Below, piece after piece: positions 1-5,669 of a stretch of 5,669 nucleotides of DNA. Positions within the stretch are counted from its first letter, which is position 1. Each line of letters opens with the position of its first letter. The notes under the pieces are model-generated. The model saw only the letters and a list, made by a program, of their open reading frames with translations, was not told the DNA's origin and did not search any database. The DNA is taken from the IMG/VR virus record IMGVR_UViG_2778261151_000002, positions 1 through 5,669 of that record. One strand, given 5' to 3'. The stretch comes from a virus. Taxonomy: Duplodnaviria; Heunggongvirae; Uroviricota; Caudoviricetes. A program made the translations under genes and the position numbers.

Positions 1-296
1 CGCGTTGTTTCCGGTATATCGACTTTGATGTACGGGTTAATTTGTCTGGCGACAGTGGCAAGGTCTTTATTCAGGAGAGCTTTGCATTCTGCTTCGGTAT
101 ACGTTTTACCAGGCATGATGTCTTTTCCGGTGTGTCCGTGACATACAGTCCATACACCAATGATATCTTTGTATGGTATGTAGCTGACACCTTCCAGACC
201 ATCGTTACCACCTGGGCCAGTGATTAACACAGATGCTATAGCAACAGCCCCGCCACCAATAGCAACTGCAACAGCCTTGCGTAATGATGGCGACAT
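1..296 (-). CDS. R: SAR endolysin (phage-21 R-type lysozyme), N-terminal ~98 aa only; 3' end runs off the window
   Basis: Manual minus-strand translation from ATG 296..294 gives [98 protein letters not shown]... Hydrophobic Gly/Ala-rich N-terminus fits a signal-anchor-release domain, followed by an E-x8-D-x5-T lysozyme catalytic triad. Start overlaps the holin stop (TAATG). Not in the ORF track because no stop lies within the window. Confidence 0.85.
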
Positions 297-511
297 TATT
301 CACCTCTCGCAGCCTTACGCTTATCTTCTCTTATTTTGAAATACAGATTCGTCAGATAAGTCAGAAGCCCCAGAAGCAGACTTCCCAGCACACCAATCGC
401 AGCCCACTGTGATGGACTGACCTGATCAAGCCACTGTAAAAACCAGTAGCCGGCACTGCCTGCGGAGGTGCCGTAGGCAATGCCCGTTGATATTTTGTCC
501 ATGGATTTCAT
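296..511 (-). CDS. S: Class II holin / pinholin, phage-21 S-type (71 aa), with dual-start motif MKSM
   Basis: ORF 296..589 trimmed to ATG at 511..509 ([71 protein letters not shown]). Two predicted TM segments and a charged C-terminus. Strong SD GGAGGTG 6 nt upstream. Second Met at codon 4 matches the antiholin/holin dual-start arrangement known for S21. Confidence 0.9.
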
Positions 512-627
512 AGCCTCACCTCCGCAAATAACGGATGGCGTAGTTCTTATATTGGGAAGGGAAAAAGAAGGCCGCAGCGTAACTGTCACTGATGAATTCA
601 GGATAGCCAGTGGCTACGGCTCAGTTA

Positions 628-703
628 TGGTGCTGGTTAACGGACTTGAACCGCTACCCATTCGCTTACAAGGCGACTGCTCTACCATTGGAGCTAAACC
701 AGC
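628..703 (-). tRNA. tRNA, manual fold gives anticodon UGU (Thr); 76 nt with encoded CCA
   Basis: Minus-strand read: acceptor GCTGGTT/AACCAGC (7 bp), D-arm GCTC-CAATGGTA-GAGC, anticodon arm GTCGC-CTTGTAA-GCGAA (U33, anticodon TGT, A37), 5-nt variable loop, T-arm AGCGG-TTCAAGT-CCGTT, discriminator A, CCA. Isotype assignment is by hand and needs tRNAscan-SE. Confidence 0.75.
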
Positions 704-708
704 ATATT

Positions 709-783
709 TGGCGGGACAGCGTGGACTCGAACCACGATAAGAAGGTTAACAGCCTTCCGTAATGACCTTTATACGACTGACCC
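709..783 (-). tRNA. tRNA, manual fold gives anticodon GUU (Asn); 75 nt with encoded CCA
   Basis: Minus-strand read: acceptor GGGTCAG/CTGTCCC (6 of 7 bp, U-U at 4:69), D-arm GTAT-AAAGGTCA-TTAC, anticodon arm GAAGG-CTGTTAA-CCTTC (perfect 5 bp, U33, anticodon GTT, A37), 4-nt variable loop, canonical T-arm CGTGG-TTCGAGT-CCACG, discriminator G, CCA. Separated from the other tRNA by 5 nt. Confidence 0.7.
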
Positions 784-784
784 C

Positions 785-809
785 AATAAAAAATCCCGAA
801 ACCGTTATG
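785..809 (-). terminator. Possible tR'-like late terminator remnant (T-tract with conserved 3' arm only)
   Basis: Minus strand reads GCATAACGGTTTCGGGATTTTTTATT, which matches my recollection of the 3' half of lambda tR'. I could not find the complementary 5' arm (CCCGAAAC) upstream, so a stable hairpin is not evident. Confidence 0.3.
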
Positions 810-933
810 CAGGCTCTATTCCTATGTGCTCTCGAGTTTATGATGCGCATGTCAGCGCGCTTAGAACTTAAAGATGAGGTGGGTAAAAAACCGAAAGAAT
901 GTGAACGGATATAAATCTGCCATTCTTGAGTCA

Positions 934-962
934 AATTTACCCAACTTTATTCAAAAAGTCAA
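934..962 (-). promoter_or_regulatory. Late promoter pR' with Q-utilisation (qut) region, lambda type
   Basis: Minus strand immediately after the Q stop: TTGACT (962..957), 17-bp spacer TTTTGAATAAAGTTGGG, TAAATT (939..934), then TGACTCAAG. This is near-identical to my recollection of lambda pR' -35/-10 and the intervening Q-binding element. Confidence 0.8.
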
Positions 963-1004
963 TATCATGCCGTTAATATGTTGCCATCCGTGGCAATCAT
1001 GCTG

Positions 1005-1628
1005 CTAACGTGTGACCGCATTCAAAATGTTGTCTGCGATTGACTCTTCTTTGTGGCATTGCACCACCAGGGCGTCATACAGCGGCTTAACAGTGCGTGA
1101 CCAGGTGGGTTGAGTAAGGTTTGGGATTAGCATCGTTACAGCGCGATATGCTGCGCTTGCTGGCATCCTTGAATAACCGACGCCTTTACATCTTCCGCAC
1201 TCTTTCTCAACAACTCTCCCCCACTGCTCTGTTTTTGCTATATCAACTGCCCGGCCTGTACCGTGGCAATCTCTGCATCTTGCGCCCGGCGTCGCGGCAC
1301 TACGACAATAATCCGCATAAGCGAATGTTGCGAGCACTTGCAGTACCTTTGCCTTAGTGTTTCCTTCGAGCTTTGCCACACCACGGTATTTCCCCGATAC
1401 CTTGTGTGCAAATTGCATCAGATAGTTGATAGCCTTTTGTTTGTCGTTCTGGCTGAGTTCATGCTTACCGCAAAATGCAGCCATTCCGAATCCGGCTTGT
1501 GATTGCGCCATCCCCATAGCAGCCATCACATCAGTACCGGAAAGAGAGTCAGAAGCCGTAGCCCGTGGTGAGTCGCTCATCATCGGGCTTTTTGGCGAAT
1601 GAAATTTAGCTACGCTTTCGAGTCTCAT
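1005..1628 (-). CDS. Q: Late-gene antitermination protein Q (lambda-type, 207 aa)
   Basis: Full-length ORF MRLESVAKFHSPKSPMMSDSPRATASDS...CRDCHGTGRAV...ECGRCKGVGY...NAVTR, with the zinc-binding Cys cluster and the length of lambda Q. Start overlaps the ninH stop (ATGA). Lies directly upstream of the pR'/qut sequence. Confidence 0.95.
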   Translation of the reverse strand: MRLESVAKFHSPKSPMMSDSPRATASDSLSGTDVMAAMGMAQSQAGFGMAAFCGKHELSQNDKQKAINYLMQFAHKVSGKYRGVAKLEGNTKAKVLQVLATFAYADYCRSAATPGARCRDCHGTGRAVDIAKTEQWGRVVEKECGRCKGVGYSRMPASAAYRAVTMLIPNLTQPTWSRTVKPLYDALVVQCHKEESIADNILNAVTR

Positions 1629-1813
1629 CGTCTTCCCCTCTTGCCCTGTTTGACCATCAGGACGCCGTTAACTATTACGTGACGCTCGCCTTTGCTGTCT
1701 CGGTTGTACTTGAGCACTGTTCCTCTTGCGCAGGAAAGCATCCTCGCCACTTCGGTCTGATTGCCTCGTGTCTGGATAAGAAGCTCTGGTATCGTTTGAA
1801 TTGTGGCGTTCAT
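1625..1813 (-). CDS. ninH: NinH-like small DNA-binding protein (62 aa)
   Basis: MNATIQTIPELLIQTRGNQTEVARMLSCARGTVLKYNRDSKGERHVIVNGVLMV... resembles lambda NinH (GNQTEVARRL...RGTV..KY...H.IVN.VLMV) as I recall it. Position immediately upstream of Q as in lambda. ATGA overlaps on both sides. Confidence 0.8.
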   Translation of the reverse strand: MNATIQTIPELLIQTRGNQTEVARMLSCARGTVLKYNRDSKGERHVIVNGVLMVKQGKRGRR

Positions 1814-2172
1814 ACGTTCTCCAGTTCGGTGATTTTTATTCCAAGCCTTCCGCCTGGTACTTTCACACCACGAATTACGCGAATGTCATCGAATTGCTCG
1901 TCGTCTTCCGCAAATCCGGCGTGGATAAGAGAGTCGAGTAGCCCCTTCAGGATGTTGTCGAGGTCGCGGCGGCGGGAGTCTGGAACGTCTGCGATGACTT
2001 TGATGCGGAGTCGTGCTTTGGTGAAAATATCTAACTTGAGTTGGCGGATGATTTGCTGAACGTCTTTTCGGTATTTCTGGCCTTTATCGCTGATGTAGTA
2101 TCGGCTTCCCCGTCTTCGCCAGTAGGTGTTCAGCGACGGCGGGTATGGAAGCGTGAATCTGTACTCATTCAT
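1810..2172 (-). CDS. rusA: Holliday-junction resolvase RusA (120 aa)
   Basis: MNEYRFTLPYPPSLNTYWRRRGSRYYISDKGQKYRKDV...DSRRRDLDNILKGLLDSL...GGRLGIKITELENV matches the RusA family pattern (LPxPPS.N, RRRDLDN catalytic acidic cluster) and length. Occupies the slot held by rap/ninG in lambda. Confidence 0.9.
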   Translation of the reverse strand: MNEYRFTLPYPPSLNTYWRRRGSRYYISDKGQKYRKDVQQIIRQLKLDIFTKARLRIKVIADVPDSRRRDLDNILKGLLDSLIHAGFAEDDEQFDDIRVIRGVKVPGGRLGIKITELENV

Positions 2173-2939
2173 GCAGCCTCCCCTGTTACTTTCAGCATTC
2201 CGTTATCGAGCAGCTTTCTGGTCAGCCACTGTTGACCACGCCCGGTGATTTTTGTGGTGAACGATATCTGTATTCCGTGATTTGTGTTGACCGCTGTTTC
2301 TTTCACTGTGAAATAGCCGCGATCCATATATTCCTGCATTGGCACATTGCGCCGGGAACCTGAAGCAATAAGGATTTTGTGATCACGCATCCACGCAAAC
2401 AGTTTGTTTGGGCCAATACCAACAACCTTTGCAAAGTTTCCAATCAAAATTCCGCTGGCCTCGCCAACGCGATCGGCAAACTCAACTTTAGGTGCGGCAA
2501 TCGCGAGTTGTTGCTCCAGCTTCACTTTCTGCTCATATTCGTTTGCCCACGCTCTGGCGGCTTCAGCAGGGTTTGTGAAGTCGGGCAAGGCTGACTTATC
2601 TTCTTTTTGGCCACGAAAATAATTGCGAACAAGCTCACGTTGCACTCTCCACGCCGTCTCGTCGCGCAGGGTTTTAACCAGCATCAAATAGCCTGATTCA
2701 GTGAAAACTCGCATGCCACGAGGAGGAATTTCAAAACCCCTTCTAAAGGTATTTTCATGAAAATCAATAAAATATGTATCTTCCCTGTCTATGAAATACT
2801 CAGAGTTTCGCGCATAGCCATTTTGAATAGTGGCTACTGGAACCCCGTGAATATCAGCAATCATTTGATACGTAACAACACGCTCGCCATTAAACTCAAT
2901 CGGCACGATTTCTGCGTTGGCAATAATTACGGCATTCAT
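2169..2939 (-). CDS. Phage antirepressor-like protein, ORF6N (KilA-N-like) N-terminal domain + KilA-C/ANT C-terminal domain (256 aa)
   Basis: N-terminus IEFNGERVVTYQMIADIHGV...PRGMRVFTESGYLMLVKTLRDETAWRVQRELVRNYF fits the ORF6N pattern (P..FTE.G..ML...L....A). C-terminus FADRVGEASGILIGNFAKVVGIGPNKLFAWMRDHKIL fits the KilA-C/ANT domain. Start ATG overlaps the upstream stop (ATGA at 2936..2939); stop overlaps the rusA start. Confidence 0.8.
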   Translation of the reverse strand: MNAVIIANAEIVPIEFNGERVVTYQMIADIHGVPVATIQNGYARNSEYFIDREDTYFIDFHENTFRRGFEIPPRGMRVFTESGYLMLVKTLRDETAWRVQRELVRNYFRGQKEDKSALPDFTNPAEAARAWANEYEQKVKLEQQLAIAAPKVEFADRVGEASGILIGNFAKVVGIGPNKLFAWMRDHKILIASGSRRNVPMQEYMDRGYFTVKETAVNTNHGIQISFTTKITGRGQQWLTRKLLDNGMLKVTGEAA

Positions 2940-3190
2940 GCAACACCTCCTTCAACGACAATAATGCTGTCGCGCTTACCTTGTTCGCCTTCGAAGACGT
3001 AATGCTCGTACTGAACATTGAACCCTAAGTTATTGATTCTTTCGGAAACCTCAATTTGAGGAAGCCGGATAACTCCACTTTTAACCAGCGTTTCGATGGT
3101 ACGTTTCACATTGTCATGACGCTTACCCACCAACTCAGCGATTTCAATGCTGGTCATTTTGATGGCGTTGCTATTTATCAGCTCGTTCAT
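2936..3190 (-). CDS. Small Rha-family-like phage regulatory protein (84 aa), stand-alone N-terminal-domain-only form
   Basis: MNELINSNAIKMTSIEIAELVGKRHDNVKRTIETLVKSG... has the KRHDNV-R-I motif typical of phage Rha N-terminal domains. Start chosen at ATG 3190..3188 (SD GAGAGGA about 7 nt upstream) rather than the ATG at 3196, whose spacer is too short. Stop overlaps the Ant start. Confidence 0.55.
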   Translation of the reverse strand: MNELINSNAIKMTSIEIAELVGKRHDNVKRTIETLVKSGVIRLPQIEVSERINNLGFNVQYEHYVFEGEQGKRDSIIVVEGGVA

Positions 3191-3220
3191 TGTCATGTCC
3201 TCTCATATTGAAAATTCAGC

Positions 3221-3246
3221 AATAAAAAACCCAGCCGAAGCTGGGT
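3221..3246 (-). terminator. Rho-independent terminator (minus strand) immediately downstream of the Roi-like gene
   Basis: Minus strand reads CCCAGC-TTCG-GCTGGG followed by TTTTTTATT: a 6-bp GC-rich stem, UUCG tetraloop and U6 tract. The plus strand has no T-tract after the hairpin, so it is unidirectional. Confidence 0.8.
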
Positions 3247-3264
3247 CGTTGCGTTGGCAATCTG

Positions 3265-3969
3265 TCAGTAGTGATGTAGTGAAGGAGGTAATTCTTTGTT
3301 CTTAAGTCTTACCCATGCAGAAAGATTCGTTGGTCCGTCTGGCTCATTAATATCAACATCTCGTGTGTGATTGATTAAAACGTCTCTCGCCATTCCGATA
3401 ACATACGAGAACTCATGACCGTAGTCGTGGCATCTGCCGGAATAGTTAGACTGAATTTGTCTTAGCGCCGGATACAGTTCGCGGAATAATGCCTGTGAGC
3501 GGTTGGCATAATCCCACAACCATACCAGACTGTTTGCATCTTTTGCAGAAAGCTCGCTGGTTTTCTTCTCGTGATGACCTGCGCTTTTCGAAGTCTGGCT
3601 GAAATAGCAGTCTTCCAGTTTTTCGAACACGTCCCATGCCTGATCGGTTTCGAGCATCTTCGCGTGACGGGCTGCGCCTCGTTCTGTCCAGAGGATGAGC
3701 GAGCGGGTTTTCGGGGAAATTTGTAACCCTCTTAAAGATGGTTGCAAATTTTGTGAGTAGTTTAAAGCTACCCGCAATTCTTTAAGGTCATTACCAACAA
3801 CTTTGAAAAAGTGTTTCCCTTCAACGAAGCGTACTTTGTTCTCATGATGATTCTGGCGAATACGCACCGGCTCAGTGCCGTAAAGCTGCGCCAAAAGTTC
3901 AGTGGTAATAACAGGTATCTGGTTATGGGTGATCGGGGAGAGAGTTTCAACAGCAATTTGAGTTGTCAT
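3265..3969 (-). CDS. Roi-like DNA-binding protein: ORF6N (KilA-N-like) N-terminal domain + C-terminal domain of unknown function (234 aa)
   Basis: N-terminus [37 protein letters not shown]...[35 protein letters not shown] fits the ORF6N pattern and recalls HK022/HK97 Roi. C-terminal ~110 aa has no motif I recognise. Strong SD GGAGGTG 6 nt before ATG 3969. Flanked by intrinsic terminators on both sides. Confidence 0.7.
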
Positions 3970-4130
3970 AGTGACACCTCCGGTAGATGTTTCAGAACAT
4001 CACCACCTTCAGGTGCTAATCATCGGGTGGCGAGACGTACAGGGTTAGCACTACCGGATCTACCAACCGGCCAGCCTTTCGGCTGCCCCATACGCCCCAC
4101 CATAATTCAGATGTGCGTGCGCATACGACA

Positions 4131-4154
4131 ATAAAAAACACGCTTGCGGCGTGT
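4131..4154 (-). terminator. Rho-independent terminator (minus strand) upstream of the Roi-like gene, downstream of the ninE/antisense-TA region
   Basis: Minus strand reads ACACGC-CGCAA-GCGTGT followed by TTTTTTAT (6-bp stem, 5-nt loop, T-tract). Fits the position of a nin-region tR-type terminator. Confidence 0.75.
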
Positions 4155-4290
4155 GTCTGTCGCGGTAGTTATCCGGGGTGCTAATCCCGACGCCAGATTT
4201 TGCTGGCGTATGAGGAATATAGCCCCGGATATGTGTTGTCGTCAACTACAGGCCTTGAATGCATATAACGATTTTGTTATGTTGATACCT

Positions 4291-4620
4291 ATGAACTACA
4301 CTATCGAATACTACAGTGAAGATGTAAGGCTGGAAGTCGATCGGCTTCCATTGAGTATGCGTGCCCGATACCAACATCTCGTTGAACGTATGAAGATATA
4401 TGGCAGCAATCTCGGAGAACCTCACACCAGCGCCTTTGGTGACGGGCTTTTCGAACTCAGAATTAAAGGCAACGATGGGATCGCGCGTGTTTTTTACTGC
4501 ACTCTGACAGGGAAACGCATCATCATGCTGCATAGTTTTGTAAAGAAAACGCAGAAAACACCGCCAGCCGAACGCAAGAAAGCTGAAACCAGAATGAAGG
4601 AGGTTAAGCATGACTGGTAA
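4291..4620 (+). CDS. RelE/ParE-superfamily toxin-like protein (Gp49/HigB-like, ~109 aa)
   Basis: MNYTIEYYSEDVRLEVDRLP...GDGLFELRIKGNDGIARVFYCTLTGKRIIMLHSFVKKTQKTPPAERKKAETRMKE matches the Gp49-like/HigB-like pattern (F.LR......R..Y......I..L..F.KK.QKTP..E...A). ORF-track ORF 4144..4620 trimmed to an internal ATG. Alternative ATG at 4279 (MLIPMNYT...); neither has a clear SD. Stop TAA overlaps the antitoxin gene by 11 nt. Confidence 0.75.
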   Translation: MNYTIEYYSEDVRLEVDRLPLSMRARYQHLVERMKIYGSNLGEPHTSAFGDGLFELRIKGNDGIARVFYCTLTGKRIIMLHSFVKKTQKTPPAERKKAETRMKEVKHDW

Positions 4621-4918
4621 ACGCACTCTCCCCACCATGACACACGACGAAATGGCAGCCAAATGGATGGAAGACCCGGCTTTTAAAGCAGAATACGACG
4701 CTATCGCTGACGAATTCGCACTGCTTGATGAAATGCTGGCAGCACGCAAAGAAGCTGGCTTAACTCAGGCTGAAGTTGCCGAGCGAATGGGAACAAAAGC
4801 GACCGCGATCACCAGAATGGAAAGTAATCTCGCATCAGGTATCAGCGGCCCATCATTTGCCACACTAAAAAAATTCGCCCGCGCTACTGGAAAAAAACTC
4901 CAGATCCGCTTCGTTTAA
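4610..4918 (+). CDS. HTH-XRE antitoxin-like protein (HigA-like, 102 aa)
   Basis: MTGKRTLPTMTHDEMAAKWMEDPAFKAEYDAIADEFALLDEMLAARKEAGLTQAEVAERMGTKATAITRMESN...FATLKKFARATGKKLQIRFV has a helix-turn-helix (LTQAEVAERMGT...ITRMES) and the conserved C-terminal L.IR.V tail seen in antitoxins partnered with Gp49/HigB-like toxins. Strong SD AAGGAGGT 6 nt before the ATG. Overlaps the toxin gene. Confidence 0.8.
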   Translation: MTGKRTLPTMTHDEMAAKWMEDPAFKAEYDAIADEFALLDEMLAARKEAGLTQAEVAERMGTKATAITRMESNLASGISGPSFATLKKFARATGKKLQIRFV

Positions 4919-4959
4919 CCACACCGCGCCGTCATTCTGGCGGCGCACCGGATAAATAG

Positions 4960-5136
4960 TCATTTCCTCGCACGATGTCTTAGCCACCGGATATCCCACA
5001 GGTGAGCCGTGTAGTTGAAGGTTTTTACGTCAGATTCTTTTGGGATTGGCTTGCGTTTATTTCTGGAGCGTTTCGTTGGAAGGTATTTGCAGTTTTCGCA
5101 GATGATGTCGGTGAAACTTCGTCGCTGTCGTCTCAT
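4960..5136 (-). CDS. ninE: NinE-like small protein (58 aa)
   Basis: [58 protein letters not shown] resembles lambdoid NinE as I recall it. Start ATG overlaps the ninB stop (ATGA at 5133..5136). The ORF-track version (from 5196) uses an upstream GTG that overlaps ninB; an alternative in-frame ATG at 5154 cannot be excluded. Confidence 0.7.
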
Positions 5137-5573
5137 GCCGCCCTGTCTCCCCATCGCGCTTTCCACTCCAGAGCCAGTCGCGCTTCGTCTGACCACTTAA
5201 CGCCACGCTCTGTACCGAATGCCTGTATAAGCTCTAATAGCTCCGCAAATTCGCTTACACGCATCCTGCTGGTTGACTGGCCTATTACCACAAAGCCATT
5301 CCCGGCAAGGTTAGGAACAACGTCCTGCTGCTTTAATGCTGCGGTAAACACACACTTCCAGCTTTCTGCATCCAGCCAGCGACCATGCCATTCAACCTGA
5401 CGAGAGACGTCACCAAGGCAAGCCCAAAGCTTTCGATTCTGGTCTAAGCTGCGGTTGCGTTCCTGAATGGTTACTACGATTGGTTTGGTTGGGTCTGGAA
5501 GAATTTGCTGTACTGCGTGAATAGCGTTTTGCTGATGTGCTGGAGATCGAATTTCAAAGGTTAGTTTTTTCAT
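5133..5573 (-). CDS. ninB: Recombination protein NinB (Orf family, 146 aa)
   Basis: [76 protein letters not shown]...[16 protein letters not shown] is essentially lambda NinB as I recall it. True start at ATG 5573 with SD GGGAGAGGGAAG upstream; the ORF-track start at 5591 is an upstream TTG. Confidence 0.95.
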
Positions 5574-5669
5574 GACTTCCCTCTCCCCCAAAGTAAGCGG
5601 CTCGCCAGAACCGTATTGATATTTACTGAGAAGTCAGATCAACTTTCCAGGGCAACAGATCGCGTACCC

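Follow-up and report, generated by a model that had tools for sequence, protein, structure and literature searches.

What do two closely packed transfer RNA (tRNA) genes contribute when they stand between the late promoter and the holin gene of a temperate phage? The question arose from positions 512-783 of a 5,669-nt stretch of viral DNA (positions 1 to 5,669 of the IMG/VR record IMGVR_UViG_2778261151_000002; the whole stretch is called the window below), which comprise two tRNA genes (628-783), tRNA-Asn and tRNA-Thr, and the 116-nt spacer that follows them. A sequence-only reading had regarded the arrangement as the toxin-free version of the late region of Shiga toxin (Stx)-converting phages, and had doubted the function of one of the tRNAs. 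The comparisons described here led to another answer. The feature is an already known and widely annotated phage tRNA module, that of phages 21 and Sf6. The explanation that we hold to be probable as a whole is that the two genes encode working elongator tRNAs, belong to this module, and would supply tRNAs that counter tRNA-cleaving nucleases during lytic growth. An old annotation can thereby be tied to results of 2024-2026, as the window tRNA-Thr has the very sequence shown to defeat the P2 OLD tRNase.

Integrity and distribution of the tRNA pair

ARAGORN detected exactly two tRNA genes in the window, tRNA-Asn(GTT) at 709-783 (75 nt, with a G73 discriminator) and tRNA-Thr(TGT) at 628-703 (76 nt). 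Both are located on the minus strand with an encoded CCA end, and are separated by 5 nt (704-708). The Rfam model RF00005 gave 55.3 bits (E = 3e-10) for tRNA-Asn and 61.5 bits (E = 6e-12) for tRNA-Thr, against a gathering score of 29. The anticodons UGU and GUU, the encoded CCA ends and the 5-nt spacing had been assigned by eye in the sequence-only reading, which left the strand unstated, and were confirmed. The anticodon loops CUGUUAA (Asn) and CUUGUAA (Thr) and the T-loops TTCGAGT and TTCAAGT were those of elongator tRNAs, which have seven anticodon-loop nucleotides with U33 and a purine at 37, and TTCRA in the T-loop. The identity elements for the cognate synthetases are G34, U35, U36 and G73 for asparaginyl-tRNA synthetase, and G1-C72, C2-G71, G35 and U36 for threonyl-tRNA synthetase. 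By sequence reading, all of them were present in the window tRNAs, including the pairs G1-C72 and C2-G71 of tRNA-Thr. In published assays, ACA decoding was rescued by a tRNA-Thr sequence identical to that of the window (PMC12445682).

The U-U mismatch noticed earlier in the acceptor stem of the GUU tRNA was real (U4·U69, linear columns 4:68), and tRNA-Thr also contains a non-canonical position, G27·A43, which is unpaired. Along with the modest z-scores of single-sequence folding (-1.7), these could be taken as signs that the genes are decaying, non-functional tRNA-like remnants, with the U-U mismatch as a mark of pseudogenisation. The conservation of base pairing was analysed in viral contigs retrieved with the D-arm of tRNA-Thr as anchor, which yielded more than 119 loci (118 usable); this arm was fixed by the search pattern, and the sequences used for covariation were related to one another. 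Among 17 distinct variants of tRNA-Thr, five base pairs had changed on both sides, with U-A and C-G as alternatives at the acceptor pairs 3:70 (9 variants) and 6:67 (8 variants). The 21 distinct variants of tRNA-Asn contained three such pairs. The covariation score was reached in none of 500 shuffles for either gene. The proportion of paired cells was 94.7% for tRNA-Thr and 94% for tRNA-Asn, falling to 19-46% and 35-56%, respectively, when the 3' partners were slid. U4·U69 remained unpaired in 20 of the 21 Asn variants, even in a lineage in which 6:67 and 7:66 had both switched, and G27·A43 in all 17 Thr variants. Because U4·U69 was kept in nearly all variants while the neighbouring pairs covaried, it was considered to be a conserved feature rather than decay, and the doubt raised about function fell away although the mismatch itself stood. 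The two sequences are also 99-100% conserved across phages of Escherichia, Shigella and Salmonella, and the Thr sequence was active in vivo in published rescue assays (PMC12445682; bioRxiv 10.64898/2026.07.10.737580). The interpretation as remnants is hardly credible.

Both tRNAs were 100% identical to the copies of phage 21 (OL657228) and Sf6 (AF547987), in which the annotated order of pR', qut, tR', tRNA-Asn, tRNA-Thr and holin resembles that of the window. As in these two phages, tRNA-Asn, the 5-nt gap and tRNA-Thr are followed by a conserved hairpin, and the lysis cassette of the window is of the phage 21 type. Unlike in phage 21, Q and pR' of the window are of the lambda type, as in HK446, and not of the Q21 type. 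The late leader of the window is a rare variant and its tR' hairpin lacks the 5' arm, in which it differs from both phage 21 and Sf6. The module is also present in SfI, BTP1, Kapi1, mEp506 and HK446. Tandem GUU Asn and UGU Thr tRNA genes 3' of gene Q were described in SfI, and also in Sf6, ST64T and p21 (PMC3636060), and the pair was reported in the same position in phage L and Sf6 (PMC8022706) and in P22-like prophages (PMC2629481). Megablast of the interval matched 186 phage records. The pair was found in 369 of 5,426 complete E. coli genomes (~7%), and it is annotated by PGAP in E. coli prophages. A scan of genome representatives for the Asn-Thr junction gave three loci, too few for a taxonomy beyond Enterobacteriaceae.

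A T-run terminator ended 3-4 nt before tRNA-Asn in 97 of the 102 other loci carrying this gene. These were 83 terminators of the phage 21 type and 14 of the lambda type, with median minimum free energies of -21.9 and -28.0 kcal/mol, respectively, and all of them were strong hairpins. As both terminator types precede tRNA-Asn, the module moves between Q/terminator types with its junction at the T-run. The array itself is modular: Asn-Thr is the common form, and Asn-Phe(GAA)-Thr-Arg(UCU) and Ser(GCU)-Thr-Arg(UCU)-Met(CAU) arrays with the same tRNA-Thr were seen in IMG/VR contigs (L014, L072 and L023). The GenBank record of HK446 (JQ086372) annotates no tRNA, and ARAGORN found tRNA-Asn at 881-955 and tRNA-Thr at 961-1036 (L128). 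As the preprint on this phage (bioRxiv 10.64898/2026.07.10.737580) describes a single Thr tRNA, its Asn partner was overlooked. Two unrelated coliphages that encode very few tRNAs, the P1-like phage D6 (L138, 2425-2578) and N4 (L137, 1337-1586), likewise have adjacent genes for Asn(GUU) and Thr(UGU) tRNAs; the tRNA-Thr of N4 is 86% identical to that of the window.

Anticodon arms, tRNA-cleaving nucleases and codon supply

Two published nuclease systems bear on this pair. OLD of P2, long known for excluding lambda, is lethal because it makes two cuts in the anticodon stem of host tRNA-Thr(UGU), at paired CNG motifs; it also cleaves Asn(GUU), more slowly (PMC12445682). Phage Thr(UGU) tRNAs rescue OLD toxicity, and the copy of phage 21 (tRNA-Thr21) protects and resists cleavage in vitro. 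For this resistance, the anticodon stem has to be shortened and the CNG motifs have to be altered as well (C28U/G42A in tRNA-Thr21). Extra host tRNA-ThrU gave no rescue from OLD, in contrast to the phage version (PMC12445682). OLD is also countered by tRNA-Thr(UGU) of other phages, namely tRNA-Thr6 and the copies of T4, Bas32, Bas33 and HK446 (PMC12445682; bioRxiv 10.64898/2026.07.10.737580). The rescue published for genes of the tRNA-Thr21 type was obtained with plasmid expression. The HK446 tRNA gave strong counter-defence to HK97, HK542 and Bas34, but not to lambda (bioRxiv 10.64898/2026.07.10.737580). The second system is PARIS, whose nuclease AriB cleaves the host tRNAs Lys(UUU), Thr(UGU) and, to a lesser extent, Asn(GUU) at 40|41 within U36-A-A-U39-C40. 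Its determinants are U39, position 41 (A41) and U16, and three tRNA variants of T5 together neutralise PARIS (PMC12409363).

The anticodon arms of the window tRNAs were compared with those of the host at these positions. In host thrU, 27-31/39-43 are ACUGA/UCAGU, so that 28-30 and 40-42 (CUG and CAG) both form CNG motifs, with UAAUCA at 36-41 and U16 present. The corresponding positions of the window tRNA-Thr are GUCGC/GCGAA with 27:43 unpaired, UCG and CGA at 28-30 and 40-42, and UAAGCG at 36-41, and U16 is absent. Host asnT has GCGGA/UCCGU, two CNG motifs (CGG and CCG), UAAUCC at 36-41 and U16, whereas the window tRNA-Asn has GAAGG/CCUUC, AAG and CUU, UAACCU and no U16. Both window tRNAs thus lacked every published cleavage determinant by sequence reading. 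Indeed, the window tRNA-Thr is identical in sequence to tRNA-Thr21 and shows both features of OLD resistance, the unpaired 27:43 and the C28U/G42A changes that remove both CNG motifs. These anticodon arms were kept in 117 of 118 loci for tRNA-Thr and in 94 of 102 loci for tRNA-Asn.

The anti-PARIS set of T5 has two of its three anticodons in common with the window, and its substitutions fall at the determinant positions that differ in the window as well. The residue at 39 is G in the Thr and Asn tRNAs of T5 and in the window tRNA-Thr, and C in the window tRNA-Asn; positions 41 and 16 are changed too. The sequences of the two sets are unrelated, and T5 is a virulent phage with early tRNA genes, whereas the window phage is temperate with late ones. 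A T5-type tRNA-Lys(UUU), the counterpart of the prime AriB target, was found neither in the window nor in the 38 loci scanned with ARAGORN. We found no paper treating the Asn-Thr pair of temperate phages as a unit against PARIS or OLD, within an incomplete coverage of the literature.

We propose that transcription initiated at pR' would, once Q has modified the RNA polymerase, proceed through the leader, tRNA-Asn, tRNA-Thr and the hairpin into the S21/R21 lysis genes, as the anatomy of the region suggests, and that RNase P and 3' trimming would free the two tRNAs, whose CCA ends are encoded. The pair would then act as the first unit of the late operon of a lambdoid prophage and supply Thr(UGU) and Asn(GUU) tRNAs in lytic growth, with anticodon arms differing from those of the host where Toprim tRNases of competing P2-like prophages or P4-like satellites would recognise a tRNA. 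A second benefit, compatible with the first, would be a larger supply for ACA codons, whose frequency is raised in the linked late genes. That tRNA-Thr counters P2 OLD is put forward with good confidence, given the literature on the identical sequence. An anti-nuclease role of tRNA-Asn is moderately likely, because both OLD and PARIS/AriB attack the host Asn(GUU) as a secondary target, because the phage tRNA-Asn is devoid of both CNG motifs, U39 and U16, and because the gene is tightly linked to that of tRNA-Thr.

A number of points weigh against this explanation. The window has no tRNA-Lys(UUU), although the Lys tRNA of T5 was needed to bypass PARIS (PMC12409363). The phage Thr tRNA alone neither rescued lambda from OLD nor relieved recB toxicity; HK446 encodes the protein inhibitor Oad2 as well, and a defence role of its tRNA is doubted by the authors of that work (bioRxiv 10.64898/2026.07.10.737580). 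Since the window tRNAs lie 3' of the late terminator, they would appear only after Q has acted, while OLD is triggered by early functions. Resistance of the window tRNA-Asn to nucleases is a prediction, and so are the transcription, processing and charging of both window tRNAs. The tRNA-Asn of three loci has regained both CNG motifs and that of two loci U39; in D6, tRNA-Thr retains both CNG motifs and tRNA-Asn retains U39. The shared G39 is not independent evidence, as the Thr genes of N4 and of the module are homologous, with 86% identity. Asn codons, finally, are merely ~1.2-fold enriched.

The codon figures came from 314 distinct late open reading frames (ORFs) downstream of the pair, compared with a sample of 37 E. 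coli K-12 genes and with the late genes of lambda, which has no such tRNA. They are the basis for a simpler account, in which the tRNAs solely raise the supply for phage-preferred codons (ACA, AAC/AAU) and have no link to defence. ACA occurred at 11.7 per 1000 codons in the late ORFs (21% of Thr codons), at 6.5 in the E. coli K-12 sample (12.5%) and at 8.1 in the late genes of lambda, corresponding to an approximately 1.8-fold enrichment over E. coli K-12. In addition, Thr(UGU) is encoded only once in E. coli, by thrU. The result agrees with the values reported for SfI, 17.3 against 7.1 for ACA (PMC3636060), and in the capsid gene of phage L, 24 of 25 Asn codons are AAC (PMC8022706). Asn codons were barely enriched in the late ORFs (42.3 against 35.6 per 1000 in E. 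coli K-12), and no Asn bias was seen by the authors of the SfI study (PMC3636060), so that the comparison of codon usage proposed earlier held for ACA but hardly for Asn. High use of ACA may be a consequence of carrying the tRNA and not its cause. Codon supply also leaves unexplained why an invariant anticodon arm should differ from that of the host exactly at the nuclease determinants, and the failure of more host tRNA-ThrU against OLD toxicity, where the phage version succeeded (PMC12445682), does not fit it. We therefore consider codon supply unlikely as the sole explanation.

Far less plausible is an adaptation to lysogeny, in which the tRNA offsets a host tRNA gene disturbed by integration or benefits the lysogen otherwise, as proposed for HK446 by the authors of the preprint (bioRxiv 10.64898/2026.07.10.737580). 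P22-like phages and SfI do integrate into thrW (PMC8022706; PMC3636060), and the terminator before the window tRNAs looks weakened, which could permit expression from a constitutive pR'. But thrW encodes Thr(CGU), not UGU, and is rebuilt by integration (PMC8022706), and the Asn partner, overlooked in the preprint, is left unexplained. The strong terminator directly upstream in 97 of 102 loci indicates, moreover, that expression should depend on Q, namely on lytic growth.

Position on the late transcript and the Stx-phage slot

The minus strand carries, in order, ninB and the rest of the nin region, Q, pR', a leader of ~140 nt, tRNA-Asn, tRNA-Thr, a hairpin, S21 and an R21-type lysozyme gene. 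The lambda-type late antiterminator Q (1005..1628, 207 aa in the ORF list) was identified with Pfam PF03589 (E = 1.3e-57) and PHROG 127. The late promoter pR' (934..962) consists of a -35 element TTGACT (962-957), a 17-nt spacer containing a lambda-type Q-binding region, and a -10 element TAAATT (939-934), with two mismatches to pR' of lambda and HK446 in the alignment. Transcription would start at ~927; AAGAAT follows, at the place of the sigma-dependent pause element AACGAT of lambda. A promoter scan of 480-1060 gave pR' as the sole promoter-like site, and a promoter of their own for the tRNAs was thus rejected. Downstream, the S21 pinholin/antiholin gene (296..511, minus strand, 71 aa, dual start Met1/Met4) matched PF04971 'Bacteriophage P21 holin S' (E = 1.1e-35) and has a ribosome-binding site GGAGG at 523-519. 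The 5' part of the R21-type signal-arrest-release (SAR) endolysin gene (1..296, minus strand, PF00959, E = 6.8e-17) runs off the window; this gene is annotated as lysozyme RrrD in sibling prophages. The earlier placement of the tRNAs on the late transcript between a Q-dependent promoter and S is in line with these assignments. The 3' end of tRNA-Thr is separated from the S21 ATG (511) by 116 nt (627..512), as had been read from the sequence, and in agreement with the claimed lack of toxin or cargo, the ORF list of the window contained no toxin gene or substantial ORF between tRNA-Thr and the holin.

Comparison with lambda located the insertion point. Positions 1060..920 were 97% identical to the Q-pR' region of lambda, 818-786 matched the end of lambda tR' (44749-44781) at 33 of 33 positions, and 626-568 were 91% identical to lambda 44945-45003. 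Between the last two blocks, the window has 159 bp containing the tRNA pair, and lambda has 163 bp of unrelated sequence. Judged from these alignments, the insertion point is the interval between the tR'-end block and the hairpin block, and the tRNA pair is the variable insert. The idea that the 163 bp of lambda are a decayed tRNA pair was dropped, as they show no similarity to the window tRNAs.

Stx phages do carry tRNA genes followed by stxAB in the equivalent slot: in 933W, Q, pR' and terminators are followed by ileZ-argN-argO, stx2AB, ~3 kb of other genes and then S. The window resembles 933W in having tandem tRNA genes 3' of Q/pR' and 5' of a class II holin gene, and this identity of position is what speaks for viewing it as the empty, toxin-free state of a tRNA-plus-cargo slot that is chiefly an insertion hotspot. 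In 933W the isoacceptors are Ile, Arg and Arg, a difference that had been recognised from the start, and the interval has several terminators and a putative dedicated tRNA promoter. In BLAST of the window against the Q-to-S interval of 933W (19.5-27.5 kb), the holin gene alone matched (72%), and the Q type also differs; homology to Stx-phage late regions was accordingly rejected as the relationship. The alignment with Stx-phage late regions suggested earlier thus bore out the shared slot position, but no similarity of the interval apart from the holin, and the insertion point was found against lambda instead, whose same two flanks enclose unrelated DNA. Among the 186 records matching the interval, no named organism group begins with 'Stx' (one group is unnamed), while 173 Stx-named records matched other parts of the window.

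Nor did the slot often hold cargo beside this pair. In about nine in ten of the ~96 loci with enough downstream DNA, the holin gene is reached directly, 110-360 nt after tRNA-Thr, and encodes a lambda-S-type holin, S21 or a class II holin of 67 aa. Inserts do occur: the sole clear one after the pair was an HNH endonuclease gene in the IMG/VR locus L107 (PHROG 953), with an ORF starting 146 nt after tRNA-Thr. In E. coli AR_0058 (L135, 1693-2184), an HNH_3+AP2 endonuclease gene occupies the slot from pR' to the holin. The protein genes in this slot of the relatives AR_0058 and L107 are thus HNH homing-type endonucleases, not toxins. On these comparisons, the 'toxin-free Stx architecture' is a positional analogy and not a relationship, and we regard the empty-slot explanation as very improbable next to the phage 21/Sf6 module.

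Late leader, terminator remnant and surroundings

The region between pR' and the tRNAs distinguishes this lineage. The tR' hairpin of lambda is long (-26.9 kcal/mol, z = -6.6) and is formed between a 5' arm with AUCCCGAAAC and a 3' arm with GGUUUCGGGAU that precedes the U-run. Of these parts, the 3' arm and the U-run remain in the window (786..818, minus strand), while the 5' arm and most of the leader (819..919, minus strand) are replaced by unrelated sequence; according to the alignment, this variant leader is unrelated to the 6S-RNA leaders of lambda and HK446. Folding of 850..784 gave -9.6 kcal/mol (z = +0.15), compared with -20.2 kcal/mol for phage 21, and the 97 comparator loci all keep a strong hairpin (-19 to -28 kcal/mol), with the full hairpin in all 14 other loci of the lambda type. 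Folding was used here since a simple terminator scan has a loop limit of 8 nt and is blind to such long-loop hairpins; within that limit, the scan gave nothing in the interval of the window or of its sibling in E. coli FDAARGOS_943.

Matches to the variant leader came from 19 of the 5,426 E. coli genomes and from none of the phage records. In AR_0058, the variant leader is followed by the HNH_3+AP2 endonuclease gene and a lambda-type holin gene, and TAGAGCCTG pairs with the downstream CAGGCTCTA. The arrangement in the window and in RMDEC465 suggests a recombination event with its junction at the common TAGAGCCTGC. The closest sibling prophage, that of FDAARGOS_943, is 98.9% identical to the window. 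Its late leader contains a GC-rich insertion of 46 nt (L006, ~9500-9550), a possible replacement terminator, which folds at -20 kcal/mol with a z-score of just -1.2. The tR' remnant is shorter by a further 8 nt in this sibling, and ninB is interrupted by IS600.

Beyond tRNA-Thr, folding detected a long imperfect hairpin (620-571) with the U-rich tail CUUCUUUUU (570-562), together spanning 562..620 on the minus strand. The hairpin (~50 nt) folds at -23.4 kcal/mol (z = -4.1), compared with -27.7 kcal/mol in HK446 and -25.5 kcal/mol in phage 21, and is common to ~100 loci. The tRNA-less lambda contains it as well, within the 91% identical block at 44945-45003; z-scores for such hairpins were about -4 to -5 (L128:1037-1110 and L001:1367-1440 are further examples). 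Among 19 variants, 97% of the hairpin positions were paired with zero compensatory changes. The hairpin may be a second terminator, a processing site or a stabilising element at the 5' end of the mRNA. The U-rich tail was restricted to lysis cassettes of the S21 type, in which the hairpin and tail together could form an effective stop before the lysis genes.

Several features lie elsewhere in the window. On the minus strand at 4023-4222, Rfam models identified an isrK-like Hfq-binding small RNA (4133-4209, 80 bits), a C4 antisense RNA (4023-4107, 72 bits) and an a1b1 target (4170-4222). These RNAs are located upstream of antirepressor-like genes, an ORF with a P22AR C-terminal domain (3265-3969) and an Ant-like ORF (2169-2939), and the whole arrangement resembles an immI antisense switch of the P1/P7 style within the nin region. 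On the plus strand at ~4290-4918, two overlapping ORFs run opposite to the phage genes. They matched a toxin of the RelE/ParE family and a helix-turn-helix antitoxin of an annotated sibling prophage, a type II toxin-antitoxin pair in the nin region.

Returning to the tRNA genes, the loss of the tR' 5' arm in this lineage, together with the hairpin and U-rich tail after tRNA-Thr, may create a short tRNA operon on a constitutive pR' in the lysogen. A wider proposal is put forward tentatively and as rather doubtful: the Asn-Thr pair of lambdoid and P22-like phages would be a minimal, co-selected two-tRNA kit fitted to the overlapping targets of OLD (P2 prophages) and AriB/PARIS (P4 satellites), in which tRNA-Asn would be resistant and required along with tRNA-Thr, and which in the present lineage would also be expressed in the lysogen from the constitutive pR'. 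The Asn(GUU) partner bears on the question of what makes temperate phages retain one or two tRNAs, and the defective tR' of this lineage offers a natural case for expression of such tRNAs by a lysogen. If the proposal is true, expression in the lysogen would weaken abortive infection by tRNases within the host cell itself.

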